40,000 nucleotides of DNA from Roseibium sp. TrichSKD4 (GCF_000148725.1 NZ_GL476316.1:4605-44604), one strand, 5' to 3'. Shown: positions 1 to 36,861, counted from the stretch's first letter. A program made the numbers and translations. Notes: generated from the letters alone by a model not told the origin.

Positions 1-232
1 CTTCTCGTTCAAATCTCTCATCAAACGACATTCCAATATTGCTATACAAGACATGGATCAATCGTTCTTTTATTTGCGCAATTCTCCATTGTATCTCGAT
101 ATTTCTATTCAAATAAAAAGACATATTTCGTCTATCGTATTCGGATGTAATCAATATTAATACTAGCAAACCAAAAAGAAACGCGCCAATAACGCCAAAT
201 ATTAACTGGCTATTTTCTCGCAATTTTTTCAT
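1..232 (-). CDS. Partial CDS (N-terminus only) of a membrane-anchored protein, possibly a sensor
   Basis: Not in ORF track. ATG 232-230 overlaps the stop of the upstream gene (ATGA). My translation MKKLRENSQLIFGVIGAFLFGLLVLILITSEYDRRNMSFYLNRNIEIQW... is open to position 1 and has one clear TM helix. Confidence 0.35.
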   Translation of the reverse strand, partial: MKKLRENSQLIFGVIGAFLFGLLVLILITSEYDRRNMSFYLNRNIEIQWRIAQIKERLIHVLYSNIGMSFDERFERE

Positions 233-780
233 TTCTTGCTATGTGCTATTGCCGATACATGAAATACCCAAATTGCATTCCTCATATTCAGGTAATATTC
301 CGGCAGTTCTTTGAGCGGCCACACCAAAAATATCGGGCCATTTTCTGGAATGGTTATTGGTCTAAATAACTGCCCATCTGCACAAGCTTCAGTAATGTAA
401 TCTTGCGGTTCACAATTCCGCTCCACCGCCAATATTGGTGCGTATTGTGAAATTTCTGACCTTTTCACACCTGAGATAAAGCCGTTATGCGCAGATATCT
501 CGATATCATCCCCGCCAGTATTGTTATGCCGTAACAACAAATCTCCAAGAAACGGGCCTCGATATAATATCTCTTGGTTATTCGACCAAGGCGTTATAGT
601 TTCTATGGTATTCTGTTCATATTCATTCTTTAGGTCTTCTAATGTATATTTTCTTACAACGTCTCCTTCTTCGTTAAATATTTCCATATTTTCAAAGGAA
701 CCGCCCGCTATTGCGGGCATGGGAATATTCAACAAGGCAGTAAATATAGAAAACAGCAGTACAATACTTTTATTAAACAT
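229..780 (-). CDS. Secreted/periplasmic protein resembling the small oxidoreductase molybdopterin-binding-like domain proteins
   Basis: Signal peptide MFNKSIVLLFSIFTALLNIPMPAIA; motifs TITPW..., GPFLGDLL, NGPIFLVWP recalled from that family; GGGAGAG Shine-Dalgarno 5 nt before ATG; AT-rich. Confidence 0.5.
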   Translation of the reverse strand: MFNKSIVLLFSIFTALLNIPMPAIAGGSFENMEIFNEEGDVVRKYTLEDLKNEYEQNTIETITPWSNNQEILYRGPFLGDLLLRHNNTGGDDIEISAHNGFISGVKRSEISQYAPILAVERNCEPQDYITEACADGQLFRPITIPENGPIFLVWPLKELPEYYLNMRNAIWVFHVSAIAHSKK

Positions 781-1447
781 CTTGACTCTCCCTATCGTAA
801 GAAATACACAAATTACTAGAGTATTTTTTGTTTATTCTAAAGCCTTTACCATTTATATGGTTATTTATCGATCCTATTCCTGTGTGGCCGTATATTTGCG
901 GATGTAATTCCACACAAATGCGTTCTATCCCGAGCAATTTCGCATCTTCAAGAATTTCCTTTTCCGCCCCCTCTATATCCATTACTAAGCAGTTTATCGA
1001 ATTATCACGTATAAAATCGTCTATATTTCGAGTTTTTATCTTAATTACTTCCTCATATGGGCCTTGTTCCTTATACAAGGACGACATCCAAAACTCTTGC
1101 CGGATATAGAAATCCATTTCTCCATGGGCTTTTGCAGAAAAGGCCCCGATATTCAACGAGGCGACATTGTTGTTGTTGATGGTTGCTGTTCTCTTGAGTA
1201 ATTCGATAAGAGCCGGATTTGCATCAAAGCTCCATACTTTAACGTCTTCTATCTGGCTCAAAATCGTTGTAATAAAACCCATACCGGCACCGATTTCCAG
1301 AATACGATCACCGGGCTTTACAAGATTTTTCACACAATAGGCTTCATCAGACTCATACGTTTTATTGAGCAAGGCATCGACTATTTTTCCGGCAACTTCA
1401 TTTTCGTCAAGGTGCAATTTCACATCTTCTAAATTTACATGGAGCAT
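773..1447 (-). CDS. FkbM-family SAM-dependent methyltransferase
   Basis: SAM-binding motif ILEIGAGMGFIT and DIEGAE motif typical of FkbM family. Start moved to ATG 1447 (AGGAAG SD 6 nt upstream); the track ORF to 1564 overlaps the upstream gene. Confidence 0.6.
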   Translation of the reverse strand: MLHVNLEDVKLHLDENEVAGKIVDALLNKTYESDEAYCVKNLVKPGDRILEIGAGMGFITTILSQIEDVKVWSFDANPALIELLKRTATINNNNVASLNIGAFSAKAHGEMDFYIRQEFWMSSLYKEQGPYEEVIKIKTRNIDDFIRDNSINCLVMDIEGAEKEILEDAKLLGIERICVELHPQIYGHTGIGSINNHINGKGFRINKKYSSNLCISYDRESQDV

Positions 1448-1460
1448 CGTCCGCTTCCTA

Positions 1461-2054
1461 TTAAGCGTGTGTTCTAATCTTCTTTGAAGCATTCTTGTAA
1501 TGCTTACAAACCGTGTCCGTAGAAATATTATGTAGGTCTGCGTATTGTTGGTATTTATCGACAATACGTTCTGTTCTTCGCCGTGATTTTACAAAATTAT
1601 AAATACTCTGCTCACGGTCTGTAAGAAATGAATAATATTCCTCGTGTTCTTGAGATATATTTTTTGTATATTTGTTACCTTCACCTTTTGTTATTATTTC
1701 CTCTATCTGTCGGCTATCTAATCCTATTTTTGAAAGATATAATTCTGTTCCAGTTCCCAATAAATTTTCCTTTTCCTGAAAATCATAGGAGCCGGTAATT
1801 ACGACTTGAACCGCCGACGGGAATGCTTCACTTGCTGACAGAACTACATGCTGCCTATCTGTACGTGATAGCGGATTAAAACCGGGCAGTCCCGGATCAA
1901 TAAAAACAAAATCGAAATCCTCCCCTTCAAGTTCAAGTGCCGCGCAAAGTGTAGAGACACCGACAACATAGCTCTTTTCGCGCAATCTTGTGATGATCCC
2001 AATAATTGCCTTTCGCATAAGGTCATGATCTTCAACGACTAATACTCTCAGCAT
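1461..2054 (-). CDS. Response regulator: receiver domain + LuxR/FixJ-like C-terminal HTH
   Basis: VLVVEDHD, FVFIDPGLPG (phospho-acceptor Asp), VVITGS and LSK receiver landmarks; C-terminal LTDREQSIY...ISTDTVCKHYKNASKKI. ATG 2054 preferred over GTG 2066. AT-rich. Confidence 0.7.
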   Translation of the reverse strand: MLRVLVVEDHDLMRKAIIGIITRLREKSYVVGVSTLCAALELEGEDFDFVFIDPGLPGFNPLSRTDRQHVVLSASEAFPSAVQVVITGSYDFQEKENLLGTGTELYLSKIGLDSRQIEEIITKGEGNKYTKNISQEHEEYYSFLTDREQSIYNFVKSRRRTERIVDKYQQYADLHNISTDTVCKHYKNASKKIRTHA

Positions 2055-2071
2055 CGAAACCACCACATTTA

Positions 2072-3472
2072 CTAATTCATTGCGCAGGAACTATTTATAA
2101 GACCAAACAGCGTCTTATCTAAACGCAGTTCTCCACGCTCGGCCGCCGCCATCATACCCCTGAAATACCCCCCCGGACTGCTGATATTTGCTCCGCGCAA
2201 AAACTTCTCCGCTATGATCGCCGCGCAAAGTGCTGCCACATGATCCCCATGGTTTGCCGCACCCAATCTGTAGGCCGACGGTGAAAGACCTATACCGGCC
2301 CTGATCGTATCGGCCGCCATGAGAAGGTCAGACCATCGGTCAAGTTCAATATTGAAATTTGGACGTGTTTGGCACAACGCAGTGCGAACCAACTGGAAAT
2401 TAATCCCACTTACAGAGGTCTTACCGCGTTCGTCTCTCGATAGGGGTATTTGCTCTTGCTCGGATGAGCCGCCGCCGCAAGGCTCCTTTTCAAGAGCCAT
2501 TTCATTGCCGGAGGCAATGTTAGAGCTATTTCTGATGTCTTGCGCGTTAGCGCAAGTCCGCTCACTACTAGATACGTGTGTTTCTGGGTTTGTAGGATGT
2601 AAATGGGTGTCAGTTTTGTCACCCGACCATGACATTTTCTGTCCTTTATGAAGAGCTTGGTCTACCTCAGTCCACGCACCTTCAAGCAAAATGGATAGCG
2701 CTTCTGCCTTAGTTGCACGATCCGCAGCCATATCCTTGATGGCAAGAGCGTCTGCTTCTATGCGCGTGAAATCTACGCCCCCGTTTTCCGCCTGTATCCG
2801 CAGGTCTTCAAGGCTTCTCAAGGCTTGTTCAACTGCCCGCTTTGCAGCCCTATCACTTGCAAGCTTGGCTCGGTGCTCCTGTGCCAAGACCCTTAATTCA
2901 TCCAAACGCTGACGGGCAGGGGCAAAAGATAGCCCATAAACTTCCTGACCATTTTTAGATCGAAAACGGCGGCCTGTCGGGCTATCCCGATAAGCAAGTA
3001 TACCAGCTTCTACCAGACCTTTTAAAAGTCGGGATACAGTGCGCTCTGAACAAGCCAGCGCATTGGCTAGATAAGCGTTCGATAAAGTTGCAATCGGTTC
3101 GCGGTCATCGACCCAATCGCCAGATCGGGTTGCGCCCAAAAGCAGATCAAGAGCTTGGTAGCGCCCTCGTGTGATGTGAAGGGCCGGGCAGGCTGATTTG
3201 ATAACTCGGGCCGCTTCCGTTTTCGTGGTGTTGGCTTGGCACTTTTGCGCAGCCAGCGCCTGAGAAGCGACTATTTGTTGATTTATAGTTCTAAATTTAG
3301 CGGCGATAGACATAAGACTCCCCTCGTCCGGGAGCTTCTTCCGCTTGACTTTCAATCCATTTTCAGGGAAATTGATCTTGTCTAATTGCGAAAGACGCTC
3401 GACCCGACGCCTAGTTGGTTGGACGTTTAGTGTGTTTGTTGGAACCACCTTTTTGCTGGGACTGTTAGACAC
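2072..3472 (-). CDS. repC: RepC-like replication initiator protein
   Basis: N-half LANALACSERTVSRLLKGLVEAGILAYRDSPTGRRF resembles the RepC wHTH (..LVEAGLI.RRDSPNGKRY). C-terminus ISSPGGYFRGMMAAAERGELRL resembles the RepC C-terminal domain (..SPGGYLR..AG.F). Track start is GTG 3472; ATG 3313 with a GGGGAG SD is an equally good start. Confidence 0.75.
   Translation of the reverse strand: MSNSPSKKVVPTNTLNVQPTRRRVERLSQLDKINFPENGLKVKRKKLPDEGSLMSIAAKFRTINQQIVASQALAAQKCQANTTKTEAARVIKSACPALHITRGRYQALDLLLGATRSGDWVDDREPIATLSNAYLANALACSERTVSRLLKGLVEAGILAYRDSPTGRRFRSKNGQEVYGLSFAPARQRLDELRVLAQEHRAKLASDRAAKRAVEQALRSLEDLRIQAENGGVDFTRIEADALAIKDMAADRATKAEALSILLEGAWTEVDQALHKGQKMSWSGDKTDTHLHPTNPETHVSSSERTCANAQDIRNSSNIASGNEMALEKEPCGGGSSEQEQIPLSRDERGKTSVSGINFQLVRTALCQTRPNFNIELDRWSDLLMAADTIRAGIGLSPSAYRLGAANHGDHVAALCAAIIAEKFLRGANISSPGGYFRGMMAAAERGELRLDKTLFGLINSSCAMN
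2539..2556. repeat. Perfect inverted repeat CTTGCGC-GTTA-GCGCAAG inside the AT-richer linker of repC
   Basis: Read directly. It lies in the low-complexity linker between the two RepC-like halves; in repABC replicons the origin maps inside repC. Confidence 0.3.
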
Positions 3473-4437: not shown

Positions 4438-5106
4438 ATGGGATTTGTTTTTTCCGTTTTACAAAATAAGGGCGGGGCTGGAAAATCCACCCTTGTCATA
4501 GCGTTAGCCGGATTGTTGGCAAAGGAACCGGGGGCGCGTGTCATCATCGTAGACACAGACAAGCAGGAAAGCGCCGCCAAGTGGGCAGCCGTCGATATGC
4601 CGGGCAGGGGGCATATCGACTATGTGACTGAACTGGCTGAAACCGATATCACCGACCTGTTACGCCAACTTAGAGCCGAATACGATTACATCATCGTAGA
4701 CACAGCCGGGTTTGACAGTCGGATGGCGGGGTTTGTCATGGGGGGCAGTCAATTGTGCCTGATCCCGGTCAAGGCTACCGTCCCCGATGCCCAAGGGGCA
4801 ATTGCCACGGCCAAGAGTGTCACAGCCACAGCCAACATGATCCGCCAACACATTCCAACCCTTGGGGTGCGGATGGATTTCGACCCAAAAACCCGTGCGA
4901 CCGCTGCCATCAATGACCAATTGGCTTCATATGAAAAGCTGGAATTTGCTGACACAACCCTATGGCATGCTACCGGCTTTAAAGACGCCATGAACACAGG
5001 TGAAGCCGTCACCGGCCGGGCCAAGGGACTAACACAAAGCCTTTTGGTGGAACTCAGAAACAAAAAGCTCCTGCCTCTGCCCGGCGAATCCAGCCGCGCC
5101 GCATAA
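4438..5106 (+). CDS. parA: ParA-family partition ATPase (small, type Ib-like)
   Basis: Deviant Walker A NKGGAGKSTL near the N-terminus; IIVDTAG Walker B-like; 222 aa. Confidence 0.9.
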   Translation: MGFVFSVLQNKGGAGKSTLVIALAGLLAKEPGARVIIVDTDKQESAAKWAAVDMPGRGHIDYVTELAETDITDLLRQLRAEYDYIIVDTAGFDSRMAGFVMGGSQLCLIPVKATVPDAQGAIATAKSVTATANMIRQHIPTLGVRMDFDPKTRATAAINDQLASYEKLEFADTTLWHATGFKDAMNTGEAVTGRAKGLTQSLLVELRNKKLLPLPGESSRAA

Positions 5107-5538: not shown

Positions 5539-5678
5539 ATTGTAGTGGGGGTCCATTAGGGCTCAGTGATAAATCGTACGCTAGGCGATTTCAGCTTCCA
5601 TCTTGCGCCAGATGTACTGTCCGATAAGCAGGATGTGTTCCCACCCGAGCGTAGTGCAGGCCAGAAACAGGGGGTATG

Positions 5679-6071
5679 TCAGTCCGATACGGCTCGGCGC
5701 GTTGGATTGAAAGCGCTACGAGTAGCTGTCCAAACAAGGGTCAAGGTGAATAGTAACCAAGACCACTTCCGGCTGTTGCCTCTTGCTCGCAATGCCCTTC
5801 GGAACTCGCTCGATGCAAAATCCACATCTCGTCCACGACGCAAGAACACATCATGGACGGCGGCTGCAGGTAGTACACTGCGGTCATGTGGGTCTTGTGC
5901 CCATTCCAACCACCACGGAACAGAAATATCGAAAGGCGTTCCTGCCGGGATGATTTCAGTGTGGCCAGAGCCTTTCCAGCCAATATCCCAATAGAGCGGT
6001 TTGGTCAGAACATAGGCTTTGCGCGTGCCCTGCACATGCTCGAAATGCTCGAATGTCGAAAAGCTGGACAT
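5679..6071 (-). CDS. DUF1353-like phage protein (last gene of fibre cassette)
   Basis: Pattern ...IIPAGTPFDISVPWW...AAAVHDVFL recalled from the DUF1353 family commonly found after tail-fibre genes. Confidence 0.45.
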   Translation of the reverse strand: MSSFSTFEHFEHVQGTRKAYVLTKPLYWDIGWKGSGHTEIIPAGTPFDISVPWWLEWAQDPHDRSVLPAAAVHDVFLRRGRDVDFASSEFRRALRARGNSRKWSWLLFTLTLVWTATRSAFNPTRRAVSD

Positions 6072-6074
6072 GGA

Positions 6075-6644
6075 TCAAGCCGCCGAGAGCCACTTCGTTA
6101 GAGCCGCCGCCGCTTCCGCCTCAGAGGCTTCGAGGATAGCGGCCACCTCTTCTGCGGTGTCTGCCGCTTTTATGGCTGCATCGGTTCGCTCTTTCAGATC
6201 ATCCGCTTGACCAATCAGATCATCGAAGGTTTCCGCCTTCTTTAGTATCAAATTGGCAAAAGCATCAAAGGCCATATCGCGGCGGTCCGCGCCACCTTCA
6301 ATGATCCGCGTCTGTTTTTCGCTGGCTGTTCCTTCCAGATACTTTTCAGCGGCCAATGCCTTTCGCGGCCAAGAGTGCATCTCTTCATCGCTGGCATTAC
6401 CTGAAAGTCTGCGAAGTGTTTCTGCATGACGCTGTTTTACAGCCTTCACAGCTTCGGATTTGACCTCATCAAGGGGGCGGACAGGTACAGGCGGCGGCGC
6501 AAAACTACCGTCTGGCTGCTGGATGTAGCCGAGGGAAACTCCGTCCGGGACGGAATGCGCGTTTTCCCGGTCCGCAAGGCCCTGCAGAACCTGACACCAA
6601 GCGATCACTACGCCGTCTTGGTCAACATTAACAAAGCCTGTCAT
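6075..6644 (-). CDS. Putative tail-fibre assembly chaperone
   Basis: 4-nt overlap with the end of the fibre gene; position equivalent to P2 gpG; alanine/glutamate-rich C-terminus. Confidence 0.45.
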   Translation of the reverse strand: MTGFVNVDQDGVVIAWCQVLQGLADRENAHSVPDGVSLGYIQQPDGSFAPPPVPVRPLDEVKSEAVKAVKQRHAETLRRLSGNASDEEMHSWPRKALAAEKYLEGTASEKQTRIIEGGADRRDMAFDAFANLILKKAETFDDLIGQADDLKERTDAAIKAADTAEEVAAILEASEAEAAAALTKWLSAA

Positions 6645-8215
6645 GCCTGTCGCTCCCTCAAATTAATCCAAGACGAGCCCTTTTCGTCATACAGTCCGGT
6701 CCCTCCTGAAACGGTACGATTAATGTAAACTGTCTTTGTCCCGGTGTCCGACGACTGAGCCATAAGGCGGTAAGTGTTACTGCCTGCGGTAGGCGAGGTG
6801 TCGATAAAGCCTGCCAAGCTTCTATGGTCCGGCGTGCTGTTATTGTCGGGGTCATAGGTAGGTGTAAAAAGTCCATTCGCACCGGGGGCACCTCCGCCAG
6901 TACCGCGCAACAAGTCGGTGCCGTTTCGCGTCAGCCACAATACTACGTTATGGTTACACTCGAAAAACATTGACAGGTCAATTTGAACGTGGTTCCCGGC
7001 CTTCACGTTATCAATCGTTGTCGTAAACAACGCAATTTCAATACCTGACGTTGCTGTCCAAGCAGGCGCGGTATATGTCGCTTGCGTACTGAATTGGTTC
7101 ACCACACGGTTTTTCGCGACACGTTCCAGCTCGCCCGCCTTCGACACAACCGCATTGAGCGATGCAACATAGGCCAGCGCTTGGACGACTTCAGGAGCAT
7201 CAACCGTATCTGCTGCCTTGATGTACCAATCGACTGTGAGGGATTTGACGCGGGTCTCTGAGGCTGTACGAACGCCGGGGACCGCTGATGCAGGTCCTGT
7301 CAGAGGGTGAGTTTCATTACCTTCTGCCGCATTACCCTGAGGCAATTCTTGACTTTCACCAGTTTCGGCGACTGTACGACCGGAACCGAATGTGCGGACA
7401 GAAGTGCGCGCGGTTCCATCAGACACATTGGAGGCGTAAGCGTCTTCGTGCGGGTGGTCTTGGAACGCATCTTCAAGCACCGTTCCGGCAGCACCTGCCA
7501 AGGGACCTGCCCCGCGCAAAACCCGATCATCAGGATCAGGCAGCACGCCATCCGGGTATTTCAGCGCCAGTTTTTTGTAGATCGTGACATCAAAGGTCGC
7601 ACCATTCCCAAGCTTCAGCCAGCCGGGACCAAAACCAGTGCCAGAAGGGTCCCCCAGTATCCCGCCAACCGGCACCCCGTCACCAGACCCGATATCCACC
7701 CACGCGCCGCCGTCGCCCCGCGTTGGGTCAAAATATTGCGGCTTGCCACCCTCCGGGGCCATGCGAGTCTCGACAGCCCGCTTGGACTGATGCTCCATCA
7801 CGGTTGCTGCAAAGTTCGGATCATCCCCAAGCGCATTGGCGAGCTCCTGAATGGTATCCAGCAACTCCGGCGCATTGCCTCCGAGCAGCTGCTCCAATTG
7901 AGACGCCAATTGCGCAAGAGCCATTTCCAGCGTCTTAGTACCGTGCTTCACGTCCTTACTGGTTAAGGCGTCATTCTTCCATGCCTGACCATCATGACGC
8001 AGAACTTCACCAGCCTTTGGCGCGGTTACAGTCACACTGCCATTGTCGCCCAGATCGCGGGTGCCAACCGATGCAATGGCTTCCTTTGCCTCTGAAATAT
8101 GCTGATCAACATCGGTAATGGTTTTCTTGATCCGGCGGATATCATCCAGTGCGTCATTATTTTCATCCGGTAGGAGCAACCCCAAATTCGGGGTCTTGTT
8201 GTCTATGATGGCCAT
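6641..8215 (-). CDS. Tail fibre protein with tail-collar-like domain
   Basis: N-terminus KTPNLGLLLPDENNDALDDIRR.. typical of fibre N-termini; GPGWLKLGNGATFDVTIYKKLALKYP...LPDPDDRVLRGAG resembles the phage tail collar motif. Confidence 0.7.
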   Translation of the reverse strand: MAIIDNKTPNLGLLLPDENNDALDDIRRIKKTITDVDQHISEAKEAIASVGTRDLGDNGSVTVTAPKAGEVLRHDGQAWKNDALTSKDVKHGTKTLEMALAQLASQLEQLLGGNAPELLDTIQELANALGDDPNFAATVMEHQSKRAVETRMAPEGGKPQYFDPTRGDGGAWVDIGSGDGVPVGGILGDPSGTGFGPGWLKLGNGATFDVTIYKKLALKYPDGVLPDPDDRVLRGAGPLAGAAGTVLEDAFQDHPHEDAYASNVSDGTARTSVRTFGSGRTVAETGESQELPQGNAAEGNETHPLTGPASAVPGVRTASETRVKSLTVDWYIKAADTVDAPEVVQALAYVASLNAVVSKAGELERVAKNRVVNQFSTQATYTAPAWTATSGIEIALFTTTIDNVKAGNHVQIDLSMFFECNHNVVLWLTRNGTDLLRGTGGGAPGANGLFTPTYDPDNNSTPDHRSLAGFIDTSPTAGSNTYRLMAQSSDTGTKTVYINRTVSGGTGLYDEKGSSWINLRERQA

Positions 8216-31695: not shown

Positions 31696-31867
31696 GGTAT
31701 GGCCGAAGCTCTTTCTGTTTGTTGGAACGGCGGAGATTGTTCTCATTGCTCTGCTGAATAAGTGATTTCAAAGCATCTACATCGGAAACGTGCTTAACGG
31801 ACGCGATCTGGTCGTTATTGAACATCAGCGCGTAATCGCTATTTGAAAGTTTGATGAGTTCAAACAT
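31685..31867 (-). CDS. Hypothetical protein (60 aa)
   Basis: ORF track; ATG start; overlaps neighbours on both sides in the operon; no motif. Confidence 0.35.
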   Translation of the reverse strand: MFELIKLSNSDYALMFNNDQIASVKHVSDVDALKSLIQQSNENNLRRSNKQKELRPYHAC

Positions 31868-32138
31868 GGCCTACCCTTTCGATACCAACCAAGACCCCAT
31901 TGTCTTCACCGCCAAACCGGCACTCCATGGCGAGATAGTGACGGCCATGATCACACAAAACGTAAGGACCAAGTTCCCCGGCAAAGACCTCCCGGTGACC
32001 GTCCATGCATGTAAACCCGCTCACCTTCACCACGTCACCGGGGGCGATTTGGTCAAGGGTGCAGGCAGAAATGGGCATGGCCATCTCCTGAAACTGAGGC
32101 CCGGCGACCTTCAAATGAGCCAAGAGGGGGTGGCGCAT
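31860..32138 (-). CDS. Hypothetical protein; first gene of the late array
   Basis: ORF track; internal ATG 32078 has an AGGAG SD, so the true product may be 72 aa. Confidence 0.4.
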   Translation of the reverse strand: MRHPLLAHLKVAGPQFQEMAMPISACTLDQIAPGDVVKVSGFTCMDGHREVFAGELGPYVLCDHGRHYLAMECRFGGEDNGVLVGIERVGHV

Positions 32139-32400
32139 TCGGGTCAGCCGGGCGACCGGGGGGTGACAGTCCCCGGATAAGGGCGCTTTAGCGCTTATTT
32201 AATGATTTAGACAAAAGAAAAACCCGGCTCTTTCGAGAGAGCCGGGCTTGAGGAGACCCAATTAAACGTTGATTTTAATGTGTATTTGTGTGCCGCAATC
32301 CACAAAAAACCCGTTTTACTTAGGCATCCTCAATTTGACATTTACCGCTATTGCGCGCAAGTCTTTTTTTACAAAATCTCATTTTTCCACAAGGTACGAC
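32139..32400. other. Non-coding region next to the integrase: candidate attP and/or cos and regulatory region
   Basis: ~260 bp without credible ORF; AT-rich core AATTAAACGTTGATTTTAATGTGTATTTGTGTG with inverted ATTAAA/TTTAAT; two hairpins. Confidence 0.3.
32210..32246 (-). terminator. Rho-independent terminator at the head of the late gene array
   Basis: Minus strand CCCGGCUCU-CUCGAA-AGAGCCGGG (9-bp stem) followed by TTTTTCTTTTG. Confidence 0.65.
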
Positions 32401-33456
32401 GTGACACCTCACGCAAACAAGGCCAAATATCTCTTGGAAATGCCCCGCAAAAGCGGGCCAGTCTACTACGTCCAGACACGCAAGGGCGGGCGGGCTTTGC
32501 GCATACAGTCACCCGCTGACAGTTCGGAATTTTGGCCTGAATACGGGCGGCTTGTGGGCCGCGCCTTGTCTGATCCCGGCCCGATCAGCCCGACCACGGC
32601 ATGCGGGCGACACAAGATCGCCCAACTGATCAACGCCTATCGGCAGAGCCGGGATTTTACGTCCCTCAAGCCAAATACGCAAAAAACGTACTCTTGCGCA
32701 TTGAACAAGATTGCAGACCTGTTCGGAATACGGGAGTTTCGCACCCTCTCCCGGCAGGATATTCGCTTGGCCATGGATAACATGCCCATATATGCCGCCA
32801 ACCAGTTCTTGCAGCAAATACGGCAACTCAATGACTGGTGCGACCAGCGCGGCTATACAGATACGTTTCCAGCGGCCGGAATAAAATCACACGGCAAAAG
32901 CCGGACAGGGTTCCCGGCATGGTCACAAGAAGAAGTTGACACTTATTTGACCGCCCATCCTATCGGGACACAGGCCCGGCTCATGATTGATTTGCTGCGC
33001 TTCACCGGAATGCGGGTTGGCGATATTATTCGGCTGGGGCCGGATCATATCAGGGACGGATTTATTGCCATCACCTTGCAGAAAAACGGGGTGCCGGTCA
33101 CAATTCCGCTTAACCCGGACCTAGAAGTCAGCATTGACGCGACCACCCCGGACGGGGCCAAAACCTTCCTGACCTTGGACCGCTTCAAGCGGGCGTTTTC
33201 GTCAAGCAAGTATTTTGCTCAAACCTTCCGTGCCCATTGCCGGGCGGCCGGATTGGAGGGAACTGCGGCGCGGCGGGCTGTTTCGGGTCATGGTTTGCGC
33301 AAGTTCGCGCTGATTTCGGTTCTGGAAAATGGCGGCACGATCCGCGAGGCCCAAGCCCTTTTTGGCTGGCGGGACGCAGCCATGGTGCAGCACTATTCAG
33401 AAGAACTCGACCGCGAACGGGTTGGCCGGACACGCGGCCCGGACCTGATGCTGTGA
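32401..33456 (+). CDS. int: Tyrosine recombinase / phage integrase
   Basis: TGMRVGDI (Arg I), SGHGLRKF (H-x-x-R) and WRDAAMVQHY (catalytic Tyr) motifs. Start uncertain (GTG 32401 or ATG 32440); the track start at 32269 is unlikely. Confidence 0.85.
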   Translation: MTPHANKAKYLLEMPRKSGPVYYVQTRKGGRALRIQSPADSSEFWPEYGRLVGRALSDPGPISPTTACGRHKIAQLINAYRQSRDFTSLKPNTQKTYSCALNKIADLFGIREFRTLSRQDIRLAMDNMPIYAANQFLQQIRQLNDWCDQRGYTDTFPAAGIKSHGKSRTGFPAWSQEEVDTYLTAHPIGTQARLMIDLLRFTGMRVGDIIRLGPDHIRDGFIAITLQKNGVPVTIPLNPDLEVSIDATTPDGAKTFLTLDRFKRAFSSSKYFAQTFRAHCRAAGLEGTAARRAVSGHGLRKFALISVLENGGTIREAQALFGWRDAAMVQHYSEELDRERVGRTRGPDLML

Positions 33457-33464
33457 ACAGTATA

Positions 33465-33500
33465 GCCCGGCTATAACACGGGCCAATTGTTTTGTATTTC
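33465..33500 (+). terminator. Possible integrase terminator; overlaps palindrome TATAGCC-C-GGCTATA (33461-33475)
   Basis: GCCCG-N9-CGGGC followed by CAATTGTTTTGTATTT; weak stem. Confidence 0.3.
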
Positions 33501-33506
33501 AATACA

Positions 33507-33815
33507 TCATTCAGCGGGCGAAACAGGGGCCGCAGTCAGGCGCAACCCCAAGGCGGCAAACACGCCCAAAAGCGTTGACAATCGCGGATCGCCTTTTTTG
33601 CTCAACGCCTTGTAAAGCCCCTCACGGGTAATCCCGGCCTGCCCGGCAATGGCTGCCATGCCCTTGGCCTTGGCAACATCTCCAAGGGCCGTTGTAATAG
33701 CCTGCGGATCGCCATCATCAAAGGCCGCTTCCAGATAGGCAGCCACGGCTTCCGGGGTTTCCAGTTGGTCTTGAATGTTCCACTCTGGCAGAGTGTCAAT
33801 CTTGGTTGCGCTCAT
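33507..33815 (-). CDS. Antitoxin, HTH 'addiction module antidote' (HigA/Xre-like)
   Basis: ..AAYLEAAFDDGDPQAITTALGDVAKAKGMAAIAGQAGITREGLYKALSKKGDPRLSTLLGVFAALGLRL matches the remembered antidote family partnered with RelE/ParE-type killers. Confidence 0.8.
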   Translation of the reverse strand: MSATKIDTLPEWNIQDQLETPEAVAAYLEAAFDDGDPQAITTALGDVAKAKGMAAIAGQAGITREGLYKALSKKGDPRLSTLLGVFAALGLRLTAAPVSPAE

Positions 33816-34108
33816 AATCCAAACTCCTCTTTGATGCGCTTGGCCTTAGCGATATCAGCGGATTGCGTTGACTTGTCGCCGCCACACAAAAGCAGGACCA
33901 CGGTTTTTCCAGCTTGCGCAAAATAGACCCTGTAACCGGGGCCGTAAAAGATGCGGATTTCCTGCACCCCGTCCCCGACCGGCTTGGTGTCGCCCATATT
34001 GCCAAGGCTGATCCGGCGCAGGCGCACGTCAATGCGCGCCTTGGCCTGCCGGTCTTTCAGCTTGGAATACCACTTGGCAAAATCGGGGGCTTGTTTAATC
34101 GTGATCAT
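33812..34108 (-). CDS. Toxin, RelE/ParE-superfamily 'addiction module killer'
   Basis: ..FAKWYSKLKDRQAKARIDVRLRRISLGNMGDTKPVGDGVQEIRIFYGPGYRVYFAQAGKTVVLLLCGGDKSTQ matches the remembered family consensus; 4-nt overlap with the antitoxin. ATG 34108 preferred over GTG 34126. Confidence 0.8.
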   Translation of the reverse strand: MITIKQAPDFAKWYSKLKDRQAKARIDVRLRRISLGNMGDTKPVGDGVQEIRIFYGPGYRVYFAQAGKTVVLLLCGGDKSTQSADIAKAKRIKEEFGL

Positions 34109-34143
34109 CTGTAAACTATAGTTCACATTTCACAAGCCGTCAA
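34109..34143 (-). promoter_or_regulatory. Sigma-70-type promoter of the TA operon
   Basis: Minus strand TTGACG (34143-34138)-17 nt-TATAGT (34120-34115); only 6 nt separate the -10 box from the toxin ATG. Confidence 0.5.
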
Positions 34144-34155
34144 CACAAAATAACA

Positions 34156-34174
34156 ACAAATATCTATTATCTGT
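34156..34174. repeat. Near-palindrome ACAAATA-TCTAT-TATCTGT, second copy of the 14400-14418 motif
   Basis: Read directly; overlaps a TTGACAGATA -35-like element on the minus strand. Confidence 0.5.
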
Positions 34175-34237
34175 CAATTAATGTTAGATATTTAGATCGC
34201 CTTACCACACCCTGCCCACTCGACGTTCACTCGACAC

Positions 34238-34648
34238 TCAAGACACCTTTAAGCGCGGCGGCTCCCCGAACATATCAACCATTTCCGTGTAGAACTCCGC
34301 CTTTAGCCAACGGTCCAGACAAGCCGCATTGATTTGTTGCTGACCTTCAACAACGCAAGCTACATCGTCTTGATCATTTAAAAACCGGTCAAGGGCGAGC
34401 GCGGCGACCTTTCTGCGCAATGTCAAAAATCCGAAAAAACTTAGAATTGGGTCGAAAGCCGAAACAGGTAAATTGACATATCCCCATCGACTGACCTCGA
34501 TTAAATCCAGAGCCGTATCTCTTGATACCCAAACCTGTGTCAGTTTCTTCAAAAAATCTTCCGTTTTACCGGCCGCCGCCGTTTTCCGAATGTCCATTAT
34601 CGACCTTTTATCGGCTTCAAACCGTATCCCTTGGAACCAATTCTGCAT
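34238..34648 (-). CDS. Hypothetical protein (136 aa)
   Basis: ORF track; GAGG SD; preceded 6 nt upstream by the small TM ORF; no recognisable motif. Confidence 0.45.
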   Translation of the reverse strand: MQNWFQGIRFEADKRSIMDIRKTAAAGKTEDFLKKLTQVWVSRDTALDLIEVSRWGYVNLPVSAFDPILSFFGFLTLRRKVAALALDRFLNDQDDVACVVEGQQQINAACLDRWLKAEFYTEMVDMFGEPPRLKVS

Positions 34649-34654
34649 GGCCTC

Positions 34655-34804
34655 TTATTTCCCGTGAGTAAAATACTGCGCCAAATAGATGGGCCACAAT
34701 GCTCCAAAAAGGACATCAGCGACAAGGCCGCGCGAACTGGAAACCCCGACGAATACAACACCAATTGCAATGTAAGACATTGCGAGAAAAGAGAAGATTT
34801 CCAT
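34655..34804 (-). CDS. Small hydrophobic protein (49 aa), two predicted TM segments
   Basis: Not in ORF track (below 60 aa). My translation MEIFSFLAMSYIAIGVVFVGVSSSRGLVADVLFGALWPIYLAQYFTHGK; stop lies 6 nt before the next ATG. Confidence 0.4.
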   Translation of the reverse strand: MEIFSFLAMSYIAIGVVFVGVSSSRGLVADVLFGALWPIYLAQYFTHGK

Positions 34805-34834
34805 GTTGCTAATTCCGTTTATTGATCACGATCA

Positions 34835-35116
34835 TCACCAGCCCTTTTGTTCGGCTTCAATCCGTATCCATTCCAGTTCCCCGACCGGGGCGGCTATATC
34901 GCCCATGTGCCAGTAAATCTCGTTTTCCCGGCACCATAATTTCATGCGCGCCCACTGGTCATCCGTAAACGTTGCCAGTGCCGCTAAGTCGCCGGGGGAA
35001 GCCGTGTTCACAAGATCGACTTGGTAGCTCCCCGAGCTTGAATAGGGAGCCTCCCGACCTAACGCCAGATCGCGGCAAATGCTCAGGCGTCGTTTCATTC
35101 CCTGCGAATTACACAT
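34835..35116 (-). CDS. Hypothetical protein (93 aa or shorter)
   Basis: ORF track; starts 2 nt after the SieB-like stop; no motif. Confidence 0.4.
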   Translation of the reverse strand: MCNSQGMKRRLSICRDLALGREAPYSSSGSYQVDLVNTASPGDLAALATFTDDQWARMKLWCRENEIYWHMGDIAAPVGELEWIRIEAEQKGW

Positions 35117-35118
35117 GT

Positions 35119-35709
35119 CTAATTTTTTGCACTCAAAGTTTCGGGATGGTGTAGATGATAGTCTACTTCTGAAATTGTGTTTATAAATTTTAAAATATTA
35201 TCTGTGCTAAGTTCCCTGAATAATTCTTCTTGAAAACTATTAGACTTTAGTTTTGATTTTGATTTATTAGTTAGCGTAAAATATTCGTATTTACTTCCCG
35301 TGATATAAACCACCCCTGTATATGGAATACTAATTAGATTCCTATTTTTAAGGCTAATAATTGCAGGATGCTCTTCTCTTAGTCTAGCGCCTTGATATTG
35401 GTTTAATATATAAAAGCAAAGGATCGCGCGCTCTTCTTCATTTAAATATTTGACATTTATTATTTCACTACTTTTAATACAATTAAAAACAGAGACACCC
35501 GTTTTCGTTATGAATATTATTATCGGAATGAAGAAAGCAATAGAAATATACCCTCTGTAACTACTAGATATCTCTGATAGTTTAAAGTACTCTTGGTAGC
35601 TTGTTGGCAAAAACAATAAAATTCCTGACAAAAAAAAGACCGCAACCCATACCTGATATGGTGAAAGTATTTTTTCGACGTACTCTATTATTTTTTCTGC
35701 AAAATTCAT
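35119..35709 (-). CDS. Superinfection-exclusion protein B (SieB)-like membrane protein
   Basis: Two N-terminal TM helices with ..GILLFLP.. and a soluble C-half with ..LNEEERAILCFYI..; resembles the remembered SieB family. ATG 35709 with a GGAAAGGAAGGG SD. Strongly AT-rich compared with flanks. Confidence 0.5.
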   Translation of the reverse strand: MNFAEKIIEYVEKILSPYQVWVAVFFLSGILLFLPTSYQEYFKLSEISSSYRGYISIAFFIPIIIFITKTGVSVFNCIKSSEIINVKYLNEEERAILCFYILNQYQGARLREEHPAIISLKNRNLISIPYTGVVYITGSKYEYFTLTNKSKSKLKSNSFQEELFRELSTDNILKFINTISEVDYHLHHPETLSAKN

Positions 35710-35838
35710 TCTGCCCTTCCTTTCCTCTCTCGTCTTCACGGAACCAATCAACTGCTATCAAAAACTCATATCACCTTAGGACGCGGCAGCTCACCCATTC
35801 GTCAAATCTGGCATTCGCCTGCGCATTGACCTTGGTTC

Positions 35839-36093
35839 CTATCTGGTCTTCGTGAATTGCTCAAATTCATGCCATGTCCAGTCTTGCATGACCGCGAAAA
35901 GCTCCACCCAGCAAAGGCCGCCACGGGATGCCAGCTGTTCAAGGCTTTGCCTATGGTTTTGCATGGCTTGTTCGCGGTGTGGCTCCACCAAACGCCATGG
36001 GACTGATTTGATCTTTCCTTTAGCCCCAAGAATGGGGAATTGTTTCTCAGTCATCTTTGCCTGTTCAAGTGTCGTGCTATTCGTGCTAGACAT
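35839..36093 (-). CDS. Hypothetical early protein (84 aa)
   Basis: ORF track; AGGAGG SD 6 nt before the ATG. Confidence 0.5.
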   Translation of the reverse strand: MSSTNSTTLEQAKMTEKQFPILGAKGKIKSVPWRLVEPHREQAMQNHRQSLEQLASRGGLCWVELFAVMQDWTWHEFEQFTKTR

Positions 36094-36205
36094 TTCCGCC
36101 TCCTGTTTTGGGGGATATGTGCTGGTTTTTGGCTTGGATTTTATGTGTTTTTCTTATGTGCCGGGAATGTTTTGGCGGACCGCCCGGCGCTAATGGGTTG
36201 ATGTA

Positions 36206-36240
36206 TTTGGGATTTGATTGCAGGACTTGGTATTTGATTT
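36206..36240. repeat. Direct repeats TTGGGATTTGATTG / TTGGTATTTGATTT, 20-bp period (a third degenerate copy at 36134-36147)
   Basis: Read directly, in a 174-bp intergenic gap of the early region. Confidence 0.4.
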
Positions 36241-36267
36241 ACAAAATGCCAAGTCACGATATAAAAC

Positions 36268-36492
36268 TTAAGCTGGTGTTTTCGCATCAATCAACAATCG
36301 GAGGTCAGCCGTCTGAACCTCCCGCAATCTCAAGGTACCCGCAGTATCATCTTCAATAACCACTACGGCGGTCGTCTCACCTAATCCGCGCACCACAAGC
36401 ATATTGGGGCCTCCCTCATTAGGCTCAACAACCGCACCGCGCGCAAATCCTATAGTTGGGATTATCTCAACAGACACCGCTAGCCCTTCCAT
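36268..36492 (-). CDS. Hypothetical early protein (74 aa)
   Basis: ORF track; ATG start; co-oriented. Confidence 0.4.
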   Translation of the reverse strand: MEGLAVSVEIIPTIGFARGAVVEPNEGGPNMLVVRGLGETTAVVVIEDDTAGTLRLREVQTADLRLLIDAKTPA

Positions 36493-36633
36493 TTTCGAGC
36501 GCTCTTTCCTCTATCCTGGGGCAACGGCGGCAGTAACGATGATCGCAATCCCGCTGCTCCGCCGAACACGCGAAAAATCGCTGCCATGGCCCCCATTCAT
36601 GAAACCCGAAACGGCATAAAATCCTTCCCGGCA

Positions 36634-36861
36634 TCATTCGGCCTCCTGTTCGTCAATCGGGAAGCGTCGTTCCAGATCGAGCGGTTCAGACCGCCCGGCC
36701 GTGTAGCAAGTCAGAAATTCATCAACCGTATCAACCTTGTTCAACAGCAAGATCATGTTGTTTGCAGCTTCGTGAAGCGCGTAAGCTCTACCGAGCGGAT
36801 CACCGCTTTCATCAAGCGCCTCAGCGCCTTCTCTCATAAGAGAAACCAAGTTGTATTTCAT
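36634..36861 (-). CDS. Hypothetical early protein (75 aa)
   Basis: Track ORF trimmed to ATG 36861, which overlaps the stop of the upstream small TM ORF (ATGA). Confidence 0.45.
   Translation of the reverse strand: MKYNLVSLMREGAEALDESGDPLGRAYALHEAANNMILLLNKVDTVDEFLTCYTAGRSEPLDLERRFPIDEQEAE

Follow-up and report, generated by a model that had tools for sequence, protein, structure and literature searches.

On balance, we read the six small genes at positions 33507-35751 of a 40,000-nucleotide (nt) window from Roseibium sp. TrichSKD4 (GCF_000148725.1, NZ_GL476316.1) as the promoter-distal cargo end of a minus-strand early-gene array, and as a mosaic assembled from four or more units, each with its own history, rather than one system. 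The window is the whole stretch of DNA that was analyzed and corresponds to positions 4605-44604 of a stand-alone 44,623-bp contig, the ends of which are unique in the assembly; positions given here are those of the window unless the contig is named. The six genes encode a toxin-antitoxin (TA) pair, two orphan open reading frames (ORFs) of 136 and 93 amino acids (aa), here called u136 and u93, a small membrane protein of 49 aa, u49, that lies between them, and a SieB-family protein of 196 aa (Table 1). They are carried by a probable circular phage-plasmid, and the roles and expression states proposed for them below are predictions from sequence.

Gene layout and coding signal

An ORF scan found all six ORFs on the minus strand, exactly where the original prediction had placed them. 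That prediction described co-oriented cargo genes unrelated to virion or replication functions, a description that is borne out, as are the TA pair and the foreign composition of the SieB-family gene. GC content averaged over the three codon positions is 0.55 to 0.58 for the TA pair, 0.45 to 0.47 for u136 and u49, 0.56 for u93, and 0.30 for the SieB-like gene, differences that argue for separate gene histories. Codon usage learned from the long structural genes of the phage was used to compare the annotated frame with both shifted frames; it favored the annotated frame in u136, u93, and the SieB-like gene, but only weakly in u49, which is short and hydrophobic.

Several starts have alternatives. 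The toxin has an in-frame GTG at 34126 that gives 104 aa, and a TTG at 35751 would extend the SieB-like protein to 210 aa. Public gene calls begin u136 at M18 (ATG at 34597; 119 aa) and u93 at M7 (ATG at 35098; 87 aa). The 6-nt spacing that had been predicted between u49 and u136 is exact, with GAGGCC between the end of u49 and the ATG of u136.

All seven proteins of the region are singletons in 90% clusters and are known from this contig alone. No megablast match to positions 32200-36500 was found in 50,697 phages or in Escherichia coli genomes, and 131 genomes from the same bacterial family, searched at the DNA level, returned weak TA matches only. Rfam gave no credible RNA over positions 31700-36700, and no tRNAs were found. 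When the six proteins were searched against PADLOC-DB 2.0, the sole match was that of the toxin to NsnC, which was marginal (E = 0.005); u136, u93, u49, and the SieB-like protein matched no defense-system model.

Table 1. Coordinates of the six genes, associated sites, and replicon and recombinase genes of the element (window positions unless noted)
Feature	Coordinates	Strand	Basis
Helix-turn-helix (HTH) antitoxin, 102 aa	33507..33815	-	HI1420 "addiction module antidote" family
RelE/ParE-superfamily toxin, 98 aa, HI1419/Gp49 family, HigB-like	33812..34108	-	TIGR02683, PF05973, phrog_3445
Promoter-like site TTGACG-17-TATAGT	34115..34143	-	Consensus match only
Orphan ORF u136, 136 aa	34238..34648	-	ATG at 34648; coding-frame preference
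Direct-repeat copy B, reads QGIRFEADKR	34606..34632	-	Within first 17 codons of u136
Small membrane protein u49, 49 aa	34655..34804	-	Conserved homolog in genome G107
Direct-repeat copy A, reads EWIRIEAEQK	34846..34872	-	3' end of u93
Orphan ORF u93, 93 aa	34835..35116	-	Coding-frame preference
SieB-family protein, 196 aa	35119..35709	-	PF14163; two N-terminal transmembrane (TM) helices
RepC replication initiator	2072..3472	-	NF040974 RepABC_RepC, 217.5 bits (cut-off, 150); PF03428, PF11800
ParA-type partition ATPase	4438..5106	+	NF041546 ParA_partition, E = 5e-30, below equivalog cut-off; Pfam AAA_31, VirC1, CbiA
Tyrosine recombinase, convergent with TA pair	32434..33456	+	PF00589, E = 6e-17
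Second tyrosine integrase, 393 aa, arm-type	Contig 407-1588, left of window		Arm-DNA-bind_3, Phage_int_M

Farther upstream on the minus strand, an AT-rich 174-nt gap at 36094-36267, upstream of an 84-aa gene, contains an imperfect palindrome, TTGGCATTTTGTAAATCAAATACCAA, with related half-sites. The palindrome is a candidate operator and promoter that may set positions 36093-34238 apart as a transcription unit of their own; a simple promoter scan found no promoter in 36094-36267.

Toxin-antitoxin pair and phage-plasmid setting

Both partners of the RelE/ParE-type TA pair score far above the NCBIfam cut-offs, in agreement with the original prediction of a toxin-first pair with an HTH antitoxin. 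For the toxin, TIGR02683 (upstrm_HI1419, RelE/ParE family) scores 136 bits (cut-off, 62.85) over profile positions 2-94 of 95, with further matches to Gp49 in Pfam and phrog_3445, "toxin" (E = 2e-39). The antitoxin matches TIGR02684 (dnstrm_HI1420) at 108.2 bits (cut-off, 53.7), PF21716 (E = 8e-26), and phrog_4268 (E = 2e-33), which carries the PHROG label "transcriptional repressor." The toxin gene lies upstream of the antitoxin gene, and the two share 4 nt at the toxin stop and antitoxin start, the translationally coupled layout of such pairs. In matching both NCBIfam models, in the toxin-first order, in the 4-nt overlap, and in a length of about 100 aa for each protein, the pair is like other HI1419/HI1420 TA pairs. 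It differs from them in that toxin and antitoxin are each alone in a 90% cluster and in that relatives of the pair in the same bacterial family are only 66 to 71% identical in DNA. A PDB sequence search with the two proteins matched no solved structure. The TTGACG-17-TATAGT site just upstream of the toxin fits a sigma-70-like promoter better than any other site in the region, with 10 of 12 positions matched, and would be the pair's own promoter.

The element has a full set of virion genes, among them TerL, TerS, and neck genes, with a lambda-type head and a contractile tail. Virion genes, a RepC above its equivalog cut-off, and a ParA-type ATPase thus lie on one stand-alone contig, which is the combination that marks a phage-plasmid. 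When the contig ends are joined, a GC-rich stem-loop on the minus strand is followed directly by TTTGTTT and then by a Shine-Dalgarno (SD) sequence and the ATG of the first early gene. The joined ends form an intrinsic terminator and are therefore taken to be adjacent in the molecule, which makes a circular phage-plasmid the probable form of the contig. The best tblastn match of RepC is to repC of Roseibium/Labrenzia plasmids, at 39%, a likeness that suggests, short of proof, a host of Stappiaceae type; the host is probably a Roseibium-like alphaproteobacterium.

A RepC-type plasmid-like prophage has a precedent in pLM21S1 of Sinorhizobium (PMC5537653). The element described here shares the RepC-type replicon with pLM21S1 and measures 44.6 kb, compared with 117.5 kb. 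Unlike the RepC-type plasmid-like prophages, it has a solitary RepC with no repABC operon, also carries an arm-type integrase, and encodes a TerL for which the phage, genome, and family collections offered no match above 47% identity. The TA pair and the SieB-family gene each add a divergent new member to a family already known. More notable than these parts is where they sit, on a RepC/ParA phage-plasmid from a marine-type alphaproteobacterium; the element is a singleton, and no collection searched gave a close relative.

The recombinase that is convergent with the TA pair has a catalytic domain, a weak SAM-like N terminus, and no arm-binding domain. Its best NCBIfam resemblances are to Xer-type proteins and fall far below cut-off, and in the PDB it reaches lambda Int and XerD only at E values of about 1e-4. 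Its relatives are about 35% identical and stand in other arrangements; none was found in viral contigs. The six genes had been placed next to the int/attP of a temperate phage, and a recombinase does adjoin them, but it is one of two tyrosine recombinases on a RepC/ParA element.

Because the element is a RepC/ParA phage-plasmid and apparently extrachromosomal, we read the TA pair first as an addiction module, which is probably its primary role in this plasmid prophage. Its position beside a recombinase without an arm-binding domain makes a maintenance module at least as good a reading. The classical extrachromosomal setting for addiction modules is that of phd-doc on P1, and the element is like such plasmid prophages in joining a tailed-phage genome with replication genes, partition genes, and a TA pair. 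The pair would act by post-segregational killing, the stable toxin outlasting the labile antitoxin whenever a cell loses the element, and it may additionally abort infections that shut off host transcription.

A lesser possibility, still to be taken seriously, is that the pair is chiefly an anti-phage abortive-infection device of the lysogen and that the whole stretch is a genuine defense island. Some prophage type II TA pairs provide phage defense, a SieB-family gene is nearby, and the pair has a strong promoter-like site of its own. Nevertheless, PADLOC assigns the pair to no system beyond the marginal NsnC match, and the RepC and ParA genes of an apparently extrachromosomal element constitute the classical addiction setting. 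Addiction and defense are not mutually exclusive roles, which also weakens the case for defense as the chief one.

SieB-family gene

The 196-aa protein had been predicted to be a two-TM protein resembling SieB. It matches PF14163 at 43.3 bits, above the gathering score of 26 (E = 3.5e-11, with residues 26-127 aligned to profile positions 6-116 of 147), and a six-frame search with the same profile recovers the gene at 42.9 bits. The two TM helices are N-terminal, at residues 20-38 (KD19, 1.89) and 57-75 (KD19, 2.12), and correspond in position to the hydrophobic stretches of lambda SieB, in keeping with the family plan of two N-terminal helices followed by a cytoplasmic C-terminal part. After the second helix (TM2), alignment of the protein to lambda SieB and a further two proteins of the family reveals the motif L-x-E-E-x-x-x-(I/V)-L-C, which reads LNEEERAILC here and LTEEQSMVLC in lambda SieB. 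A BLASTP comparison with lambda SieB was marginal, extending over 33 residues of the first helix (TM1; E = 0.036). On the strength of the curated Pfam profile, we assign the protein to the SieB family as a divergent member.

Of 401 genomes sampled from the order, only 3 gave a PF14163 match. No relative of the SieB-like protein was found by tblastn in phages or plasmids, by a word search of 5.8e9 clusters (self only), or in viral contigs, and its own genome has no paralogs. A PDB sequence search returned nothing useful.

The DNA of the gene had been noted as strikingly AT-rich, with boundaries near those of the neighboring genes, and this observation was confirmed. The lowest-GC 590-nt segment of the whole contig, at positions 35121-35710, matches the SieB-like ORF, with a GC content of 0.302 against a contig mean of 0.525 (standard deviation, 0.055); genome-wide, only 0.6% of 590-nt segments have a GC content of 0.31 or less. 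GC content at third codon positions (GC3) is 0.26, compared with 0.5 to 0.7 in the neighboring genes, and the composition step coincides with the stop codon and lies near the start codon. By its composition, the gene is a foreign and precise single-ORF insert, evidently from a donor of much lower GC content. Plus-strand promoter-like matches inside it are expected in DNA of 30% GC.

The protein is like P22 and lambda SieB in its length (about 190 to 200 aa), its two N-terminal TM helices, its Pfam profile, and its L-x-E-E-...-L-C motif, and the gene likewise lies as AT-rich cargo among the early genes of a temperate phage. The sieB-esc-sas locus of P22 and lambda has sieB antisense to the early-left operon, an internal Esc start, and an antisense sas RNA. 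That architecture is absent at the locus described here, where the neighbors are co-oriented and no internal ATG occurs. Whereas lambda sieB lies on the strand opposite N, this gene is co-oriented with the early array, and with no internal Met codon it would give no ATG-initiated Esc-type product. The carrier also differs, being an alphaproteobacterial phage-plasmid rather than an enterobacterial lambdoid phage.

P22 SieB stops macromolecular synthesis midway in the lytic cycle of superinfecting P22-like phages and spares P22 itself (PMC10883804). By analogy, the SieB-like protein would sit in the inner membrane of the lysogen and halt the macromolecular synthesis of a superinfecting phage in mid-lytic cycle. 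If the gene is active, SieB-type exclusion would reach well beyond the enterobacterial lambdoid phages.

It is unlikely, though not negligibly so, that the gene is instead a silent or nonfunctional passenger, acquired recently as AT-rich DNA and silenced or unadapted to its host. An extreme composition (GC3 of 0.26 in a 54% GC host), the absence of a promoter-like site from the 129-nt gap upstream, and the lack of a close relative in any search all fit a passenger. Its 196-codon frame is nonetheless intact and preceded by a good AGGAAGG SD sequence, both TM helices and the family motif are kept, and read-through transcription is likely because the insert edges match the ORF and the gene is co-oriented with the operon.

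Small membrane protein u49 and the flanking orphans

The clearest case of a gene with a history of its own is u49. A six-frame search of the 131 family genomes found a homolog in another species of the genus (G107:C1:2750451-2750597) that is also 49 aa long and is 60% identical (BLASTP E = 2e-19). Between the two genes, pN is 0.24 and pS is 0.87, a value at which synonymous sites are saturated, and 32 of 58 differences fall at third codon positions. These rates and the third-position bias indicate that u49 is a real gene under purifying selection. The conserved core of the two proteins is SRGL-x-AD-x-LFG-x-LWP-x-YL. Metagenome contigs, viral contigs, and 400 genomes sampled from the order yielded no additional relatives; a match of the u49 profile in a further genome (G470), a weak TM match within a 342-aa frame, was dismissed as spurious.

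The original prediction called u49 an unannotated double-TM peptide. The protein is already present in NCBI nr, so the first of these terms does not hold everywhere. The second holds in part: helix 1 is strongly hydrophobic (KD19, 2.3) and clearly membrane-like, but helix 2 is weaker, reaching a KD19 of 1.4 and carrying a conserved Asp.

A 27-nt direct repeat brackets u49, its copies lying 240 nt apart and being identical at 23 of 27 positions. The pattern occurs only at those two sites in the window, and none of 100 shuffles reached it. The copies share a reading frame, giving IRIEAE at the 3' end of u93 and IRFEAD in the first 17 codons of u136. The segment homologous to the G107 locus, 34649-34816, falls within the repeat-bounded piece, and when 20 kb around the homolog was compared with the whole contig by tblastx, u49 was the sole shared gene. 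On the simplest reading, u49 came in by itself, as a single-gene insertion with a flanking duplication of about 27 nt. The unrelated genes around the homolog, together with the flanking repeat here, suggest on the thin basis of one homolog that u49 moves alone between mobile elements of the genus. It would then encode a small membrane protein independent of the orphan ORFs on either side and, with its repeat, would be a small and clean example of single-gene shuffling into phage early regions.

In the other species, the u49 homolog belongs to a run of eight small orphan ORFs that share one orientation (locus G107:C1:2748495-2751930). A serine recombinase and a DUF5131 gene precede the run, and chromosomal genes adjoin it. 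The locus looks like a small mobile element or prophage remnant.

Both u49 and the SieB-like gene resemble single-gene morons and mosaic cassettes in being single-ORF units of their own composition or distribution among resident genes. They differ from morons in that no dedicated promoter and terminator were detected for either gene, and the 27-nt repeat flanking u49 is unusual for a moron.

The ORFs on either side of u49 are acidic; u136 is predicted to be all-helical, and the C-terminal half of u93 is Trp-rich. Neither u136, u93, nor u49 has a Pfam, PHROG, or NCBIfam match. A word search of 5.8e9 clusters recovered only the query for both u136 and u93, as did phmmer against 1.84e9 representatives for u136. 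Searches of phages by tblastn gave nothing usable (nothing, or E = 0.5 across the u136, u93, and SieB-like queries), and neither orphan has a paralog in its own genome. Structure prediction, proposed as a check on these two proteins, named no fold: single-sequence AlphaFold2 models had mean pLDDT values of 56 for u136 and 58 for u93, and the best Foldseek matches, E = 1.8 (PDB) and E = 1.1, respectively, were uninformative. An apparent u93 match in one of the 131 family genomes (G041) was rejected as spurious, being antisense to a 627-aa chromosomal gene that we take from its sequence to be mnmG/gidA. A lipoprotein assignment for u93 was also rejected; the h-region is too short, and LSIC is no lipobox.

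Between 35.8 and 40 kb, most of the early array is made up of small ORFs without assignable function, and by the features above u93 and u136 appear indistinguishable from the phage's other small early genes of this kind. They would most likely be phage-specific early or host-modulating proteins, or else fragments of one, rather than a defined defense system.

The fragment alternative, which we consider improbable though worth stating, holds that u93 and u136 derive from a single ancestral gene, about 210 codons long, that the u49 cassette split in two, giving the upstream half a stop codon and the downstream half an SD-ATG, and that both are possibly decaying. The repeat falls at the very 3' end of u93 and in the first 17 codons of u136; its copies keep one reading frame (IRIEAE and IRFEAD); the public calls begin u136 after the repeat, at M18; and the homology to the other genome lies inside the repeat-bounded segment. 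The repeat, however, is short and only 85% identical, and u93 and u136 each retain a clear coding-frame signal. The searches found no unsplit homolog, nor any homolog of either ORF, and the GAGGCC-ATG junction is like the phage's own stereotyped gene junctions.

Several points weigh against the mosaic as we have drawn it. Membership of the 196-aa protein in the SieB family is a single profile match, pairwise likeness to lambda SieB is weak at the E value of 0.036 given above, and PADLOC and PHROG searches give no SieB match. A single homolog is thin ground for holding that u49 always travels alone, and the 27-nt repeat could be a regulatory site instead of an insertion scar. As to the carrier, circularity was deduced from the joined-end terminator and not from reads, and the arm-type integrase means that the element may also integrate.

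Two proposals of a defense role for the genes between the SieB-family gene and the TA pair fare worst. That u49 founds a family of two-helix membrane proteins, distributed as a mobile cassette in Roseibium-like bacteria and acting as an exclusion or abortive-infection effector alone or with u93 and u136, seems to us very unlikely. Still less credence is due to the inference of the original prediction that u93, u49, and u136 form a new small defense module; in such a module u49 would be the effector and the soluble pair would act as sensor or regulator, with expression from the prophage to abort or exclude phages. Tight co-oriented packing (gaps of 30 and 6 nt), a cargo neighborhood between a SieB-family gene and a TA pair, the conservation of u49 as a membrane peptide, and a promoter-like site at 35183-35155, directly ahead of u93 but in AT-rich DNA that readily yields matches of this kind, are set against the absence of a PADLOC match for all three, tight packing typical of all the early genes here, a direct repeat that encloses u49 alone, and a lack of co-occurrence: u93 and u136 have no relatives in any search, and the only u49 homolog has neither a u93 nor a u136 homolog within 20 kb. 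A plausible new defense module thus becomes, in the mosaic reading, a patchwork of independent small genes, and bench effort is saved.

Other features of the element

Near the arm-type integrase, a 150-aa HTH_3 protein is encoded on the opposite strand (contig 2163-2615) together with a 97-aa divergent ORF; the two are a candidate lysogeny switch and may serve as one. A second low-GC cargo block (GC content of 0.34 to 0.36) lies beside repC, at contig positions 3598-4836 and window positions 229-2066. It encodes a 412-aa HATPase_c protein, a 183-aa protein of unknown function, an FkbM-type methyltransferase, and a receiver-domain-like protein, and in PADLOC it gave only a weak mad2-like methyltransferase match.

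At window positions 5548-5583, on the plus strand, a single 36-nt sequence is identical to two chromosomal sites on contig C22, which continue into shared DNA. Its form (GGGG...TAAG in C22) resembles a Tn3-family terminal inverted repeat, and it may be an orphan transposon end or remnant, with no second copy in the window. The tail-fiber region at 5850-7920 shares 82 to 96% DNA identity with contigs C12, C13, C15, and C21 of the same genome, which suggests that other prophages in the strain exchange fiber modules with the element.

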